A DNA stretch of 64,000 bases, from the sequence record PQ826431.1. One strand, given 5' to 3'. The position numbers and the translations under genes are program-made. Of this stretch, positions 868-7,470 are shown piece by piece. The notes below the pieces were generated by a model. That model saw only the letters and a program-made list of their open reading frames with translations, was not told the origin of the DNA and searched no databases. The stretch is from a phage. The first letter of the stretch is position 1; each line of letters begins with the position of its first letter.

Positions 868-1458
868 TCAAATTATTAACGAAACCGCATGACTAAATCT
901 TGGTTCAGATATAACCTCTGCTACAGTCACATATGTATCGTGCAGCCAAAAAGATTCTACTCTACAAACACAAATACCGTTGATAATGAAATCTACACAG
1001 GCTTTATTATTTTCGCACACTTGTTGACTATAAACAACCCCTAAAGAGTCATAAAGTGATCTCACTGTTGCTACCATTTCATCTGTTTCGTCTTCCTGTG
1101 AAACAAAGAAAACGAATACAGACAAGTTATTAGCGAAAGTATTGCTATTCTCTACTTCAACCGACTTACAAGGTAAAAAGGAGTAATATTTACCGTTAGG
1201 TATCAATTTCGCCTCAACCTGGTTAAGTATGCTTTGAGATGGTTTTGTTACATAAAAAAGATTTTCTGTTGGGTTTTCAACATTGCTCCTTACTATGCAA
1301 CGAGTGGGGTTCGAAGGATCAAAAACATGATCGAAATCGACACACACAGGTAAGTTAACAACTTTAAACTTTTTGCTAAGAATGCTTACTGCTGTAAAAA
1401 TCAAACCAGCATTTATTTTGCCAGTGAAAGTTGAACGCATAACTACTCCTCGGATCAT
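868..1458 (-). CDS. hypothetical protein (196 aa)
   Basis: ORF in co-oriented array, start/stop abut neighbours; no motif recognised. Confidence 0.5.
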   Translation of the reverse strand: MIRGVVMRSTFTGKINAGLIFTAVSILSKKFKVVNLPVCVDFDHVFDPSNPTRCIVRSNVENPTENLFYVTKPSQSILNQVEAKLIPNGKYYSFLPCKSVEVENSNTFANNLSVFVFFVSQEDETDEMVATVRSLYDSLGVVYSQQVCENNKACVDFIINGICVCRVESFWLHDTYVTVAEVISEPRFSHAVSLII

Positions 1459-1898: not shown

Positions 1899-2134
1899 TA
1901 ATCTTCCCAGTCATTGCCCTCGGTAGAGTGAACTAAAGCTCGCACGATACCACCGTAATCTACTGCCTGATTTGCAGCATGTTCGGCATAAACTTCAATG
2001 GCTTTTTTGAAGAAAAGAGCAGTAGCTGCTTCAATATTATCCATTTCGCCATCTACGTCAGTAGAAAGTGAAAGGTTGAGGCTTTCATCTACTTCATCAA
2101 AATCAATAGCCACTGTCATAATTAGTTTACCCAT
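1898..2134 (-). CDS. hypothetical acidic protein (78 aa)
   Basis: Small ORF abutting neighbours. Confidence 0.4.
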   Translation of the reverse strand: MGKLIMTVAIDFDEVDESLNLSLSTDVDGEMDNIEAATALFFKKAIEVYAEHAANQAVDYGGIVRALVHSTEGNDWED

Positions 2135-2146
2135 AGTTCACACTCC

Positions 2147-2656
2147 TTAAACAAAATAAAATGGTTGAGAGAGGCCCAAACGATTCTTTGGGTCGTATAC
2201 ATACCAAGCGTATGCTGTCTTATCTGTTCCACCTGCAACAAACGAAGGCCGTTCTGAAAGGACTATAAGGTTTGTTGGTGGATTCTTTTGATGGAACTCT
2301 CGTCGTTTCTTTGACTCCAAGAAGCCCAACCGAAGAAGATAAATACAAACATCCGCCTCTTTTAAGCTCTTTTCCAAGAACTCCATTGCTAACTTAAATG
2401 GAGGATTTGTGATTATAATGTCGGGACGATTTTCCCATTCATGACTAAAATAATCTTTACCTTCTTCAAGTTCGCAATATTCTGAACCTTCAGGAAAATG
2501 GCGATAAATCGCTTCAGCTTCACCTCTGCAAGGTTCTGCAAAAACCCAACCTTCTTCCTTTAGATTTTTGAAATCTATAACACTAAACAAACTATTGATT
2601 GCTTTTTGCGGTGTCGGATAATAATCGCTCGTTGGGCGATCATAATCTAATGCCAT
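2147..2656 (-). CDS. putative DNA N6-adenine methyltransferase (small phage Dam-like)
   Basis: Translation contains 'IIITNPPF' (NPPF/DPPY-type catalytic motif IV of N6-adenine/N4-cytosine MTases); size about 170 aa like small phage Dam enzymes; assignment is motif-based only. Confidence 0.4.
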   Translation of the reverse strand: MALDYDRPTSDYYPTPQKAINSLFSVIDFKNLKEEGWVFAEPCRGEAEAIYRHFPEGSEYCELEEGKDYFSHEWENRPDIIITNPPFKLAMEFLEKSLKEADVCIYLLRLGFLESKKRREFHQKNPPTNLIVLSERPSFVAGGTDKTAYAWYVYDPKNRLGLSQPFYFV

Positions 2657-3152
2657 CTAAAATCTCCTCTTTTGTAATATTATCCAACTCTTTAAAGGAT
2701 GAAATCTCGTTTAATAATCCTATTTGATCAGCTTCTAGAGGATAAGTGTTTTTATCTGTTTTTCTAGACAGAATATCTTCAACAAACTTATCAATAGCCA
2801 AAGAAGAATCATAAAATTTTAAAAGTTGGTAATCCATAGGAGATATTTTGTCATCTCTTAGAAATATTTCTAACATGTTTTCAGGAGTATCATGGTTTAG
2901 TTTATGTTCACCAAAAATATTAACTTCATAAACATCTTTGCCAAACCAACGTTTCTTCTTTTCAACAGTATAGGTTTTTGCCACCAGACCATCTAAACAG
3001 TTTCTTGCCCTCTTACATGTTTGACGGTAAGAGTGGATAGCGCCTTCAACAAACTTAGCAGGAACTTGTAACATTATTAATCTCCTATGTTTAAGAAATG
3101 CCCCCGAAGGGGGCAGTTTGTTAAATAGCGGTTCCTTCGAAATCCGCCACAT
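2640..3152 (-). CDS. hypothetical protein (170 aa)
   Basis: ORF preceded (minus sense) by GC hairpin and AGGAG RBS. Confidence 0.5.
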   Translation of the reverse strand: MWRISKEPLFNKLPPSGAFLKHRRLIMLQVPAKFVEGAIHSYRQTCKRARNCLDGLVAKTYTVEKKKRWFGKDVYEVNIFGEHKLNHDTPENMLEIFLRDDKISPMDYQLLKFYDSSLAIDKFVEDILSRKTDKNTYPLEADQIGLLNEISSFKELDNITKEEILDGIRL

Positions 3153-3813
3153 TTACGAGATTAATATTTTCAGATTTAGAAGTCAAGTTGTTTTCTGCAA
3201 CAGATTTTTCTTCAGTATCCGCCTCGTTACCTGCCACGTTACGAGGTTCTTCTTCACCGTAGGGATTACCGAATTTCAAAAGATTGATCAATTCTTCTTT
3301 GGAGAAGTTTTCTAAATCATCATCTGTTAATTCAATAATCTCGTCTTGTTCTTCAATAAATGTTTCACCACCAGAAAAAGCATCTCGCTTTTTAGCTACT
3401 TCCATAGCCTGTTCTGGTGTTGCTCCTGCATCAAGAGCAGCTAAAGCAAAGTCTGACCCGCTTCCTACCGCATAATATTCTTCATCAATCGGATATGCAC
3501 GTGTTGGGTTGTTACCTTCGTGCAGGAAAATACGTCCATCTGGATGAACAACAAGTGCAATAAACTCTTCATCTTCTTTATCTGGATCAGAGTGAATCAT
3601 CAAACCAGGGACAGCATCACGTGCTGCTTCGCACTGTAGATTTTGTTCAAACCATTGAAAGAAAGAAAGCACGGAGGTCAGACGACCAGCACCGCCTACA
3701 AGGTAATCTCCAATTTTTCGGACCTTTTTGAAATTAATAGAATCTACACGTCCACCAAAAGTTACCTTACCGTCACTCAAAATCTTATTTTTGGTCGCAA
3801 TAATTGTCGTCAC
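3121..3813 (-). CDS. Ntn-hydrolase / proteasome-HslV-like peptidase with acidic C-terminal tail
   Basis: N-terminus 'MTTIIATKNKILSDGKVTFGGRVDSINFKKVRKIGDYLVGGAGRLTSVLSFFQWFEQNL' parallels HslV/proteasome beta N-terminus (Thr right after Met, GxxGxxxD, 'AVGSGSDFALAAL' near C-domain); about 50 aa acidic C-terminal extension. Confidence 0.55.
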   Translation of the reverse strand: MTTIIATKNKILSDGKVTFGGRVDSINFKKVRKIGDYLVGGAGRLTSVLSFFQWFEQNLQCEAARDAVPGLMIHSDPDKEDEEFIALVVHPDGRIFLHEGNNPTRAYPIDEEYYAVGSGSDFALAALDAGATPEQAMEVAKKRDAFSGGETFIEEQDEIIELTDDDLENFSKEELINLLKFGNPYGEEEPRNVAGNEADTEEKSVAENNLTSKSENINLVNVADFEGTAI

Positions 3814-4316
3814 TATTCTTCCTCCTCTGTTAATGTTTTAAGAACCGCTTTCCCGCCATTCACATATTTGCAGATGTATTCTATCGCACGTAGTGTCTCT
3901 TTGTCAACAAAAATTTGATCAGACGTTGCGAGCGGGTTATTAAGAAGATCACTGCAATCACGAACAAGCAGTGCTTTCTTATTAAACAAATTACTTAAGA
4001 ACAGTAACTTCGCCTCTTCTTCTGTTATGTGCAGAAGGCTAGGATCGGAGCCAGCTATTCCTATTATACAATCAAACAAGCTTTCTTTACTATCAGAAAG
4101 TTCTTGAAAATGGTTTAAAAGCCAATCTTCTCCTAGACACCAACATTTAAACATTTCCAGTTTATCTCGGAGGGTCATATTCTCTAAAGTAAGAGCAATC
4201 TCTTTTTCAATATGGTTTACACAAATTTGACGAAATTCGTTAGGTTTTACGAGTCCCGTTTGATAGCACTCATCTATACCGCTTCTTCCGATAGCTATTG
4301 TTGCTACACCCATCAA
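3813..4316 (-). CDS. hypothetical protein (167 aa)
   Basis: ORF abutting Ntn-hydrolase gene; no motif recognised. Confidence 0.5.
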   Translation of the reverse strand: MMGVATIAIGRSGIDECYQTGLVKPNEFRQICVNHIEKEIALTLENMTLRDKLEMFKCWCLGEDWLLNHFQELSDSKESLFDCIIGIAGSDPSLLHITEEEAKLLFLSNLFNKKALLVRDCSDLLNNPLATSDQIFVDKETLRAIEYICKYVNGGKAVLKTLTEEEE

Positions 4317-4348
4317 TCCTCCTTATAAATGGCTTCCCTGCCACATTA

Positions 4349-5107
4349 TTAAATAAACACTTCAGTAATCAGTTTAGACAAACGTCCACGTTTATTATCG
4401 TCCGTTGTCAGTTCAACATATCCAATAAAATCTACAATTGGCTCACGAACACCCTCTTCATTCTCTGGATATAAAAGTTCCAAAATTTGATGCAGACCAT
4501 TGCTACGTTTTTTAATTGCATATGTCTGGCGAACATCGCCTAATACAATAACATGCGTATTAATACCTGCACGTTCAATAAGAAGTTTAAGTGTTTCTGT
4601 TGACATAAGTTGTGCTTCGTCAATAATGACGATTGTATTATCCAGGGTAGCCCCCAACAAATAGTTAGGAATATTCAATTCGATCTTACCTGATCCAATA
4701 TCGTTTTCCAATTTGTTGGCTGTCATGAATTGCTGGAAAATACGTTTTGTAGATTCATAGTGTGCTGCTAGTTTATCTGTTTTATCCCCAGACAAGAAAC
4801 CAATCTGGTCATCTCCGACTTCAGTAGGGTTCTTGATAAAAAGTAGTTTACGGAAGTCTCCTGAACGAAGCATCTGCAAAGCTTTCCATAAAGCAACAGA
4901 GGTTTTACCAGTCCCTGCCGGAGCATTTACAACAGTCAGATCATTCCAAATCATGCTTTGAACAATCTTATTTTGGTCCCCTTCAGGCATAAATTCATCT
5001 AAACGGTAATCGTCATTACCTACCGCTTTTGCTGCATAACGGCTTTCAATCTTTGCTGAATTAGCCAGTTTCTGCCGTTGTGTTTTAGCTGCGGTTTTAT
5101 TTCCCAT
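4349..5107 (-). CDS. phoH: PhoH-like ATPase
   Basis: Walker A 'NAPAGTGKTSVAL' and overall PhoH-family pattern; start moved from track position 5158 to internal ATG at 5107, which is preceded by AAAGGAG RBS and lies downstream of the lysozyme stop and a GC hairpin. Confidence 0.8.
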   Translation of the reverse strand: MGNKTAAKTQRQKLANSAKIESRYAAKAVGNDDYRLDEFMPEGDQNKIVQSMIWNDLTVVNAPAGTGKTSVALWKALQMLRSGDFRKLLFIKNPTEVGDDQIGFLSGDKTDKLAAHYESTKRIFQQFMTANKLENDIGSGKIELNIPNYLLGATLDNTIVIIDEAQLMSTETLKLLIERAGINTHVIVLGDVRQTYAIKKRSNGLHQILELLYPENEEGVREPIVDFIGYVELTTDDNKRGRLSKLITEVFI

Positions 5108-5144
5108 AGTAGCACTCCTTTTAGAAGGGGCCGAAGCCCCTTTA

Positions 5145-5645
5145 TTAGTTGTAAGCATCTAAAGTTCCAGAAGTCAGAACTTTAATTACTCGTTCAGCAC
5201 GGTTTGGCGTCTGGCTATACCATCGGCTTTTACGCATGTTTTTACCTGCTTGAGTATAATATGCATTGCTGATTAAAGTCAAGCTATTTTGAAACCCTTC
5301 AGCACCTTTTAACCCCAACTGGAAAACCATGTTGATTATTCCCAATTTACGAGTATCACTAACCTTATCATAGATTGGTGATAAGATAGTACTGTTTTTT
5401 ATGTCTCTCTTCACTTTTGCAACATCGTCAGCAAAGATTTGACGGGCTTCTTTTTCTGTGATAACTCCATTAGTCTTACGACCAAGAAGATTATCTAAGA
5501 TTTGAATAGCCTTTGCTTTATCTTTTATTTTAGTCAGAAGGTGTCCTATGCCGACTGTCCAATAACCAAGATGGTCTTGATAAACAGTAAGCTTCAGTCC
5601 TTCATCGACTCGTAGCATATCAAACTCATCTACTACTTTAGCCAT
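5145..5645 (-). CDS. e: endolysin, T4 E-type lysozyme (GH24)
   Basis: Translation 'MLRVDEGLKLTVYQDHLGYWTVGIGHLL...NGVITEKEA...INMVFQLG...SRWYSQTPNRAERVI' closely parallels T4 lysozyme ([28 protein letters not shown] ... SRWYNQTPNRAKRVI). Confidence 0.9.
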   Translation of the reverse strand: MAKVVDEFDMLRVDEGLKLTVYQDHLGYWTVGIGHLLTKIKDKAKAIQILDNLLGRKTNGVITEKEARQIFADDVAKVKRDIKNSTILSPIYDKVSDTRKLGIINMVFQLGLKGAEGFQNSLTLISNAYYTQAGKNMRKSRWYSQTPNRAERVIKVLTSGTLDAYN

Positions 5646-5807
5646 TTACTTCCTATTCGTCGTCTCCTACTCCGTGATCCAACTCGTTAAACAACAAATG
5701 TTCTGGAGAAGTTTCACGTTTTGGTTTCGTTTTCTTTATGTTGGACTTCAGCTCATTTGCCAAAGCACGAGAAAAGATCTTACGTTTCTGTTTACTTTTC
5801 ATAATTG

Positions 5808-6068
5808 TTACTCCGCAATTTGAGCCATGAGATCACGCAGTTCGGTAAAACCGCCTACGTATGTTACCTCCCCGTTCACTTCAGACAGAATTTGTGGAAA
5901 TGTGCGTGGAGGAACTCCGGTAAGATCAACAACTGTTTTAGTCATTGATTCTAAATCATAGTCTTGATCAAGACTTAAATATTCAAACTGTTTATTGCGC
6001 ATGGTTAATAGTTGTTTTGACATTTCGCAAAATTGACAGTTAGGTTTACCAAAAATTACAAATTCCAT
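5808..6068 (-). CDS. glutaredoxin/NrdH-like redoxin
   Basis: 86 aa with 'CQFC' active-site-like motif near N-terminus ('FGKPNCQFCEMSKQLL') in the nucleotide-metabolism cluster. Confidence 0.55.
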   Translation of the reverse strand: MEFVIFGKPNCQFCEMSKQLLTMRNKQFEYLSLDQDYDLESMTKTVVDLTGVPPRTFPQILSEVNGEVTYVGGFTELRDLMAQIAE

Positions 6069-6910
6069 TACCTCTCCTTATTAAGTAATACTGCTAAAGA
6101 CTGTTCAATACCTTTATTTAAATCTGATTTTGTAAGATAGTGACTGGTTACTAGTTGTGACTTCACCGGACGTGCTGCTGGAGCATTATAGGTTGAAGCT
6201 GATACCGCCGATATCTTAACAGGTTCTGGCATCTGTGTCAAGATCTTTTCCGCAAACTCCGCCCAAGAAATAAAATGGCTTCCTGCAAAATGGTAAGTCT
6301 TAACAGACCTTGACCAACCTGTTTTTAATACTTCAAAAATAGCTTCTGCTAAATCTGGAGCATATGTTGGACAAGAGAACTGATCAGCAACAACAATAAA
6401 ATCACGTTGTCCATCATTATAGCGAGACAACATGGTTTTTAGAAAGTTATTTCCAAATTCGCTATATACCGAGGCTGTTCGAATAATATATGCATTTGGG
6501 TTAACTCCTCGCACCATTTTTTCACCAAGTTCTTTCGTATACCCATAATTGTTTATTGGGTTAGGTGTAGTATCTTCAAAAATAGGATGAGAATAATTAA
6601 AAATATAATCTGTAGAAATATGCACAAAATCAATTTTAAGTTTGCTGCACACTGCCGCAATATTTGCAGGTCCATACGCATTAACAGCCAAAGCAGTAGC
6701 AAAATCATGTTCTGCTTTATCTACAGCCGTATAAGCGGCGCAATTAATAACACCATCTACATAATCTTCAACAATAGCGTTTCGCACAGCTTCAAAATTT
6801 GTAATATCTACACGTTCTTTAGGATAAATTAAAGATACATTTGAAGGAACCACTTTACGTAAAGCTTGTCCCAGTTGTCCATTACCGCCCAATACCAGAT
6901 ATGTTAGCAT
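6068..6910 (-). CDS. rmlD: dTDP-4-dehydrorhamnose reductase (RmlD/RfbD-like)
   Basis: Rossmann 'LVLGGNGQLGQAL', and blocks 'CAAYTAVDKAEHD', 'HISTDYIF', 'NYGYTKELGEKMV', 'IIRTASVYS', 'ADQFSCPTYAPDLAEA' matching RmlD conserved regions. Confidence 0.8.
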   Translation of the reverse strand: MLTYLVLGGNGQLGQALRKVVPSNVSLIYPKERVDITNFEAVRNAIVEDYVDGVINCAAYTAVDKAEHDFATALAVNAYGPANIAAVCSKLKIDFVHISTDYIFNYSHPIFEDTTPNPINNYGYTKELGEKMVRGVNPNAYIIRTASVYSEFGNNFLKTMLSRYNDGQRDFIVVADQFSCPTYAPDLAEAIFEVLKTGWSRSVKTYHFAGSHFISWAEFAEKILTQMPEPVKISAVSASTYNAPAARPVKSQLVTSHYLTKSDLNKGIEQSLAVLLNKER

Positions 6911-7470
6911 ACACCCTCGCTACGTAACTGTTGAAAAGATTTAGCCATTGCATCTTTTGTTGATAGGATAGGTTTAAAACCTTCGTCAAAAATCATATCG
7001 AAGCCCCAATCGATCCCTATGTCAGGATCATCCCAACGTAAACTTTGTTCACTAGAAGGGTCGTATGGAGTTGTGCATTTGTATTCAAAGATCGCATCCA
7101 TACTCAAAACTATAAAACCATGTGCCAAACCAGGAGGAAGCCAAAACTGCGTATGGTGTCGTGCACGAAGAACAACACCGTCCCAAGCACCGTAAGTTGG
7201 ACTGTCTTTACGTAAGTCTACAGCGAAATCCAATACTTCCCCACTTACACAACGAACAAGCTTACCTTGCGGATTATTTGTTTGAAAGTGCATTCCTCGC
7301 AAAACACCGAAGTTTGATTTAGACATATTATCTTGAACGAAAGTTTGTTTACCAATAATATCTTCGTATTTTTGTTCATTGTATGTTTCTAAAAAGAAAC
7401 CACGATCATCTTTATAAACGTCTGGTTTGATAATTACCGCACCTTCAATTTTTGTTTTTTCTACTTTCAT
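6904..7470 (-). CDS. rmlC: dTDP-4-dehydrorhamnose 3,5-epimerase (RmlC/RfbC-like cupin)
   Basis: 'VLRGMHFQ...GKLVRCVSGEVLDFAVDLRKDSPTYGAWDGVVL...LPPGLAHGF' matches RmlC cupin signature; overlaps rmlD start by 7 nt. Confidence 0.8.
   Translation of the reverse strand: MKVEKTKIEGAVIIKPDVYKDDRGFFLETYNEQKYEDIIGKQTFVQDNMSKSNFGVLRGMHFQTNNPQGKLVRCVSGEVLDFAVDLRKDSPTYGAWDGVVLRARHHTQFWLPPGLAHGFIVLSMDAIFEYKCTTPYDPSSEQSLRWDDPDIGIDWGFDMIFDEGFKPILSTKDAMAKSFQQLRSEGVC

Follow-up and report, generated by a model that had tools for sequence, protein, structure and literature searches.

Helices H1 and H2 make up the cap-carrying face of HslV and the proteasome. Among proteasome homologues, the absence of helix H2 is the hallmark of the PPH and RPC groups (PMC8665760). 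PPH is a phage-specific, H2-less branch described by Fuchs, Alva & Lupas in 2021 (PMC8665760). Its members are proteins of ~140 residues with a proteasome-like β-sandwich core that carries Thr1, Asp17, Lys33 and Gly47; they lack H2, S12/H5 and a propeptide, their genes lie in tailed phages of Proteobacteria or in prophages, and their function is uncharacterised. RPC proteins (Fuchs et al. 2021) combine an H2-less core with a C-terminal extension or domain, are more divergent than PPH, and have been reported only in proteobacterial genomes. Here, we analyse a gene at positions 3121-3813 of a 64,000-nucleotide stretch of phage DNA (sequence record PQ826431.1; the whole stretch is referred to as the window). 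An earlier note, made from the sequence alone, had described the product as a hydrolase of the N-terminal nucleophile (Ntn) type resembling HslV and the proteasome β subunit. Our analysis upholds the Ntn fold but not orthology with HslV; the sequence and a predicted structure instead point to a PPH-type homologue with a C-terminal extension.

The limits of the open reading frame (ORF) given in the earlier note, 3121-3813 and 230 amino acids (aa), match the ORF list exactly. The strand had to be corrected to minus, with a GTG start, and the plus-strand frame across the same interval is riddled with stops. The N-terminus that had been quoted (MTTIIATKN, from MTTIIATKNKILSDGKVTFGGRVDSINFKKVRKIGDYLVGGAGRLTS), with Thr directly after the initiator Met, is present in the minus-strand product. 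The GTG is preceded by a Shine-Dalgarno sequence and overlaps the stop codon of the upstream ORF (TAGTG), and orthologues start with ATG-ACA-AC(N), encoding M-T-T, behind AGGAG-type sites. Since all these features support the GTG start, we conclude that the protein has no propeptide and that Thr is residue 2. Bases 2000-6000 of the window are 99.8% identical at the nucleotide level to Escherichia phage anhysbys, and at least 99.5% identical to many phAPEC8-like phages, which form the genus Phapecoctavirus of the Stephanstirmvirinae. The protease orthologues in phAPEC8 (gp175) and phi92 (gene_058) are 99.6% and 66-77% identical, respectively.

The protein matched PHROG 1040 ('peptidase HslV family') with E=1.6e-63 over residues 1-229, and the Pfam family PF00227 (Proteasome) with 25.6 bits (E=1.1e-5), above the gathering score of 22.4. 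Its best sequence matches in the PDB were all HslV; the T. maritima protein (1m4y) matched with E=4.9e-9, and with E=4.9e-15 when a 56-sequence family profile was used. We built an AlphaFold2 model from an alignment of 56 homologues. Its mean predicted local distance difference test score (pLDDT) was 85.4, and values exceeded 90 for residues 1-185. The earlier note had named structure prediction as a check on the fold, and the predicted structure is indeed HslV/proteasome-like: Foldseek matched it in the PDB to HslV (6kui, 1m4y), the β-proteobacterial proteasome homologue BPH (5ovs) and 20S β subunits (E ~1e-10, probability 1.0). When cores were superposed, the target-normalised template modelling (TM) score was 0.80-0.85 for small homologues in BFVD from the Caulobacter phages CcrBL9 and CcrColossus, versus 0.67-0.70 for HslV. 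An exhaustive deep search of 1.84 billion cluster representatives yielded 2334 matches at E<=1e-3. The nearest relatives in that search were phage-type proteins of 130-300 aa, comprising forms of 130-165 aa at 35-40% identity and longer, tailed forms. The published description of PPH (~140 residues, without S12/H5) fits the 61 short relatives (130-165 aa) that we refer to as 'mini' forms.

The active site could be followed through the same alignments. Asp14, Lys30, Gly43, Gly117-Ser118-Gly119, Asp144 and Ser147 correspond to Asp17, Lys33, Gly47, Ser129, Asp166 and Ser169 of the proteasome, respectively, and Thr2 would become Thr1; Gly47 forms the oxyanion hole. All seven equivalents are conserved in the alignments, so that in predicted fold and in sequence the protein withstands the refuting condition set in the earlier note, and the active-site residues also align to those of E. 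coli HslV. M1, T2, T3, I4, D14, K30, G117, S118 and G119 were invariant in the 56-homologue alignment; these positions, together with G43, D144 and S/T147, were conserved both in 44 tailed and in 61 'mini' representatives, and an MTT start was found in 121 of 150 deep-search representatives. The ratio of nonsynonymous to synonymous substitution rates (dN/dS) for the core, relative to the phi92 orthologue, was 0.105, indicating strong purifying selection. Given the conserved active-site positions and this low ratio, the protein is very probably an active PPH-type Ntn threonine hydrolase.

HslV proper, the peptidase of the bacterial HslUV protease, is a dodecamer of two hexameric rings that binds HslU and is activated by it. 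A genuine HslV orthologue would be expected to dock on the HslU ATPase of the host; the resulting hybrid protease, driven by ATP, would divert host proteolysis in the course of infection. Several observations are consistent with this idea: HslV is the best match among solved structures in both sequence and fold; the MTTI N-terminus and the KKVR and GSG motifs align with E. coli HslV; the hosts of phages with relatives of the protease are all Proteobacteria, which possess HslU; and the phage appears to lack an unfoldase of its own. Nevertheless, we consider HslV orthology unlikely. The protein scored only 32.2 and 31.4 bits against the NCBIfam HslV equivalogs PRK05456 and TIGR03692, for which the cut-offs are 137 and 157.75, and its identity to E. 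coli HslV is ~27%. In the model, helix H1 spans residues 45-67 and the next helix begins only at residue 120, such that H2 appears to be absent; the confidence of the hhalign alignment to HslV collapses across residues 68-119. In HslV, Lys28 partners the C-terminal carboxylate of HslU; the residue aligned to Lys28 of the E. coli protein is a Ser that is not conserved. The phage protein shares with HslV (ClpQ) the Thr1/Asp17/Lys33 constellation and the lack of a long propeptide, but differs from it in several ways: four residues are deleted from the N-terminal hairpin and nine after the GSG helix, the H3 region is shortened, the C-terminal extension is added, and an adjacent hslU is lacking. 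We found no HslU in the window: the best tblastn match to E. coli HslU had E=7.4, and direct inspection covered the 64-kb window and 50 kb of phAPEC8. Phage homologues of HslU are confined to other groups, for the most part jumbo phages of Erwinia and Salmonella; among Escherichia phage records, only four have one. Based on the predicted absence of H2, the equivalog scores and the nearest relatives, we assign the protein to the PPH type, with a C-terminal extension added. Membership of the H2-less branch, rather than orthology with HslV, weakens the case for a partnership with host HslU, and canonical docking of HslU is unlikely given the loss of H2 in the model.

The protein also departs from each of the described H2-less groups. 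Like PPH, it has a proteasome-like β-sandwich core with the Thr1, Asp17, Lys33 and Gly47 equivalents and lacks H2 and a propeptide; however, its core is ~155 residues long, contains an extra segment at residues 63-73, and is followed by a 70-residue C-terminal appendage. The segment comes after H1 and precedes a conserved acidic DEDF sequence; it is an insertion of the tailed clade that most 'mini' forms do not have. It co-occurs with the tail motif described below (Fisher p=5e-8), which is a signature of the clade and no independent sign of physical contact. The H2-less core and C-terminal extension are shared with RPC, but this protein and its close relatives are phage-encoded, and a short helical motif and a disordered acidic tail take the place of a domain. 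BPH (PDB 5ovs/5ovt), which forms heptameric double rings, was matched by Foldseek with E ~3e-10, and the acidic segment at residues 74-83 of the phage protein occupies the position of the pore loop. In contrast, BPH retains H2 and has no C-terminal tail, and its TM score to the model (0.51-0.54) is below that of HslV. With 20S β subunits, some of which use C-terminal extensions for inter-subunit contacts in eukaryotes, the phage protein shares PF00227 and the conserved equivalents of Ser129, Asp166 and Ser169; it is much smaller and lacks a propeptide, an α-subunit partner, H2 and S12/H5.

The earlier note had described a Glu/Asp-rich C-terminal extension of about 50 residues. The extension is acidic, but it is longer, running for ~70 residues past the last core strand (161-230), and it is not uniform. 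Residues 156-230 contain 20 Asp/Glu (D/E) versus 5 Lys/Arg (K/R), in a protein with 45 D/E versus 21 K/R overall. A short acidic linker leads into a conserved motif predicted to be structured (residues ~162-182), and only the distal end is both disordered and acidic (Table 1). With its flanks, the motif has the consensus EEPEE-LT[KRE]E..[LA]..[ML][ST]KEE[LI][LI]..[LI]F[GP]-EEEE. It is kept down to ~30% identity; we found the strict pattern in 33 of 150 representatives, and 57 of the 150 alignments extend at least to residue 175. The distal tail behaves differently: residues 186-230 contain 11 D/E versus 3 K/R, length and sequence vary across the family (on average 24% D/E versus 11% K/R), and dN/dS relative to phi92 is ~1.5, which means that the distal tail keeps its composition rather than its sequence. 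C-termini of proteasome homologues face away from the assumed rings and are possible interaction sites (Fuchs et al., PMC8665760). In more distant relatives, this end is lengthened or exchanged for other modules. Longer relatives keep the helical motif and add a Cys-rich insert and a β-rich domain ending in KWRLHNA; other longer relatives end in a helix-loop-helix resembling HeH/SAP motifs. A Pfam scan of the long C-terminal modules in relatives recognised only the Proteasome domain.

Table 1. Positions of the protease gene, its parts and nearby elements in the window
Feature	Position	Strand	Details
Coding sequence of the PPH-type proteasome/HslV-like Ntn threonine hydrolase	3121..3813	-	230 aa; GTG start; TAA stop at 3121-3123
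Shine-Dalgarno sequence GAGGAGG	3821..3827	-	7 nt 5' of the GTG
Codon of Thr2 (predicted catalytic Thr1 after Met removal)	3808..3810	-	Invariant in 56/56 aligned homologues
Predicted catalytic core, residues 1-155	3349..3813	-	Asp14, Lys30, Gly43, Gly117-Ser118-Gly119, Asp144, Ser147
Non-helical acidic segment, residues 68-83 (VPGLMIHSDPDKEDEE)	3565..3612	-	Replaces helix H2 and the pore loop in the model
Acidic linker EQDEII, residues 156-161	3331..3348	-	After the last core strand
Conserved motif LTDDDLENFSKEELINLLKFG, residues 162-182	3268..3330	-	Two predicted short helices (164-169, 172-181); pLDDT >90
Variable disordered acidic tail, residues 183-230	3124..3267	-	pLDDT ~46-55
Upstream ORF, 167 aa, PHROG 14834 'GLVKPNEF' family	3813..4316	-	TAG stop overlaps the GTG (TAGTG)
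GC-rich hairpin (TGCCCCCTTCGGGGGCA) followed by TTTCTT	3099..3115	-	Begins 5 nt past the protease stop
Sigma-70-like site TTGACA-18-TAGAAT	3878..3907	-	11/12 matches; ~65 nt 5' of the GTG, within the 3' end of the upstream ORF

We considered whether the acidity of the protein reflects a role that needs no catalysis. As a decoy, an HslV look-alike or a DNA- or protein-mimicking acidic tail would titrate a host factor, such as HslU, a defence sensor or a DNA-binding protein. The protein is very acidic, and its disordered tail is like that of known mimic proteins. However, the seven active-site positions are invariant or nearly so in more than 100 diverged representatives, and dN/dS is ~0.1 for the core, the distal acidic tail being the least constrained part. 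We regard a decoy as very improbable.

The protease gene lies within a long leftward block of genes for DNA replication and nucleotide metabolism. The local order is ribonucleotide reductase (RNR), dTDP-rhamnose genes, glutaredoxin, lysozyme, PhoH, the 167-aa ORF, the protease, a 144-aa ORF and a DNA methyltransferase. The gene context is early/middle and non-structural. Metagenomic phage contigs with a protease of 47-49% identity also show the order RNR-glutaredoxin-lysozyme-PhoH-[ORF]-protease, and a looser form of it is found in Vibrio and Aeromonas myophages, where the protease is ~35% identical. It was not seen in Caulobacter or Rhizobium phages that carry relatives of the protease. The 167-aa ORF is directly 5' of the protease throughout the clade of this phage. 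A confident structure prediction for its product consists mostly of helices and matched no known fold. We conclude from the arrangement of the two reading frames that the protease is translationally coupled to this conserved, predicted helical protein.

In phage VEcB (NC_052663, locus positions 2165-2968), an in-frame deletion joins PhoH (residues 1 to ~113) to the protease from residue ~63 onwards. The deletion removes the C-terminal half of PhoH, the upstream ORF, and Thr1, Asp17 and Lys33 of the protease; the fusion product is nonetheless annotated 'peptidase HslV family'. As VEcB is a viable isolate, the module of protease and upstream ORF appears to be dispensable. Together with its position, this suggests that the gene serves an accessory function in the infection phase and is neither essential nor structural. 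The same observations bear on a morphogenetic protease that is packaged in the virion, or acts on virion precursors, during prohead or tail maturation. Large myophages need maturation proteases, and the annotation as a protease invites this reading. We give it hardly any credence: the gene sits among RNR, glutaredoxin, PhoH and methyltransferase genes, outside any structural module, known prohead proteases have a different, unrelated fold, and the gene is deleted in viable VEcB.

Coupling to a conserved partner could also be taken to suggest a monomeric or small-oligomer Ntn enzyme with sequence specificity; a processing protease, a self-cleaving amidase and a transpeptidase/ligase resembling connectase are examples. 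Its substrate would be a single defined protein of the phage or the host, and the co-translated product of the upstream ORF is one candidate. Connectase is a monomeric, highly specific ligase, and several of the new proteasome homologues have traits that do not fit stacked rings (PMC8665760); the PPH type lacks H2, and the gene is tightly coupled to its partner ORF. On the other hand, the model keeps helices H3 and H4, through which proteasome rings contact each other, and there is no connectase-like S3-S4 insertion. Moreover, the upstream partner is absent from the Vibrio, Aeromonas, Caulobacter and Rhizobium phage relatives that keep the protease. Hence, we think an enzyme of this kind improbable.

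Overall, we lean towards a catalytically competent Ntn peptidase of the PPH branch that works independently of HslU and uses its tail as a recruiting or gating module. Thr is a permitted P1' residue for methionine aminopeptidase, and host deformylase and methionine aminopeptidase would remove the formylmethionine, exposing Thr1. Subunits would then assemble into HslV-like rings through the retained helices H3 and H4. With H2 gone from the cap-carrying H1/H2 face, the enzyme would do without HslU as a canonical cap; we judge independence from HslU to be slightly favoured. The C-terminal appendage, consisting of the linker, the two-helix motif and the acidic tail, would project outward and recruit partners or substrates, or gate access, possibly jointly with the co-translated upstream helical protein. 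A specific role of the tail in recruiting or gating is a tentative suggestion. More speculatively, the tailed PPH and the coupled helical protein could form an unfoldase-independent, proteasome-like viral machine that clears specific host defence or regulatory proteins early in infection. In such a machine, the two-helix motif would fill the place of the lost H2 or crown the pore, and the acidic tails and the partner would act as a gate or substrate receptor in place of HslU or the α-ring. We view this elaboration as a long shot.

Several points weigh against the peptidase that we favour. Proteobacteria, the hosts of these phages, encode HslU, and a non-canonical contact with host HslU, ClpX or another factor may occur despite the loss of H2. 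The closest solved structures, by sequence and by fold, are those of HslV. The deletion in VEcB rests on a single record, and an assembly artefact is conceivable. Our literature search found no experimental work on any phage HslV or PPH. Some of the new proteasome homologues may not form stacked rings (Fuchs et al., PMC8665760). Lastly, connectase has the proteasome fold and acts as a ligase (PMC8665760), so peptidase activity is the likeliest rather than a proven chemistry.

The earlier note had put the gene forward as a discovery. The phAPEC8 and phi92 orthologues and dozens of further records already carry the annotation 'peptidase HslV family', to which phi92 adds 'putative 20S proteasome'; alternative labels in other records are 'ATP-dependent protease subunit HslV' and 'putative proteasome component'. 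The identification therefore repeats existing annotation. The protein is already known as an HslV-family peptidase (RefSeq), the H2-less phage family was described in 2021, and the gene thus adds little as a discovery. What we add is modest: the reassignment from HslV to PPH type, the division of the tail into a conserved helical motif and a freely evolving acidic end, the coupled partner that is conserved upstream, and the natural deletion, which points to a dispensable gene. Proteasome-like peptidases are common in large phages. Since phages of the phAPEC8/phi92 type are easily grown on E. coli K-12 and are in development for therapy, the gene is a convenient entry point to the function of viral proteasome homologues. 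It would also be one to the gating of an H2-less, HslU-less ring, should the protein form a ring.

We identified relatives of the protease in 234 phage records, and 48 BFVD clusters with proteasome-like phage proteins. More than 100 Escherichia phage records have the gene. When representative bacterial genomes were scanned with narrow patterns for bacterial or prophage relatives, we obtained 139 pattern sites, from which no relative was confirmed. In Aeromonas phage 2L372D, the gene directly upstream of the tailed PPH (3432-3983) is a second proteasome-like paralogue. Its product starts MTCIIAL and matches BPH (5ovu) with E=4e-5. We counted 199 phage records with this second proteasome-like family, among them 121Q/G17 jumbo phages and T5-like phages of Salmonella and Escherichia. 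The adjacency of the 2L372D paralogues hints at hetero-oligomers.

We also asked whether neighbouring genes suggest a partner or a target. One or two genes upstream of the protease, phages of E. coli, Vibrio and Aeromonas and metagenomic contigs encode a PhoH-like ATPase (4349-5158, minus strand, in the window), and lysozyme and glutaredoxin genes precede it at syntenic loci. We discarded the idea that PhoH stands in as the ATPase partner: Caulobacter and Rhizobium phages do not have it close to the protease, and its C-termini are not conserved, which argues that it lacks an activating tail like that of HslU. The proximity of PhoH is likely to reflect shared backbone synteny rather than a partnership. 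A PADLOC search of the protease and its neighbours for a link to defence or anti-defence gave zero matches. For the suggestion in the earlier note that the peptidase could target host defence or regulatory proteins, neither this search, nor the literature, nor the partner protein gave any support.

The hairpin downstream of the protease (Table 1) sits in a 46-nt spacer before the next gene and is unannotated in phAPEC8; within the leftward operon, it may serve to terminate transcription intrinsically, to attenuate it, or to stabilise the 3' end. The sigma-70-like site may be the protease's own promoter. We found 43 promoter-like sites in the region, compared to 35 +/- 5.6 expected; because such sites are not enriched, the sigma-70-like site is weak evidence.

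The ORF listed at 2640-3152 (minus strand, 170 aa) extends too far and runs into the 3' end of the protease gene. Translation most likely begins at the ATG at 3074, which follows an AGGAG site and gives 144 aa; this form matches phAPEC8 gp176, and PHROG 15078 aligns from residue 27. RmlD-like (6068-6910) and RmlC-like (6904-7470) genes lie on the minus strand inside the nucleotide-metabolism block. Upstream, phAPEC8 has annotated genes for an RmlA-like thymidylyltransferase and a further nucleotide-sugar epimerase, which together suggest much or all of a dTDP-rhamnose pathway. A 196-aa ORF (868-1458, minus strand; PHROG 4806) has counterparts in related phages that are called 'histidyl tRNA synthetase'. 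A complete histidyl-tRNA synthetase (HisRS) is far longer, and the product is probably fragment-like or a HisRS-related domain protein.

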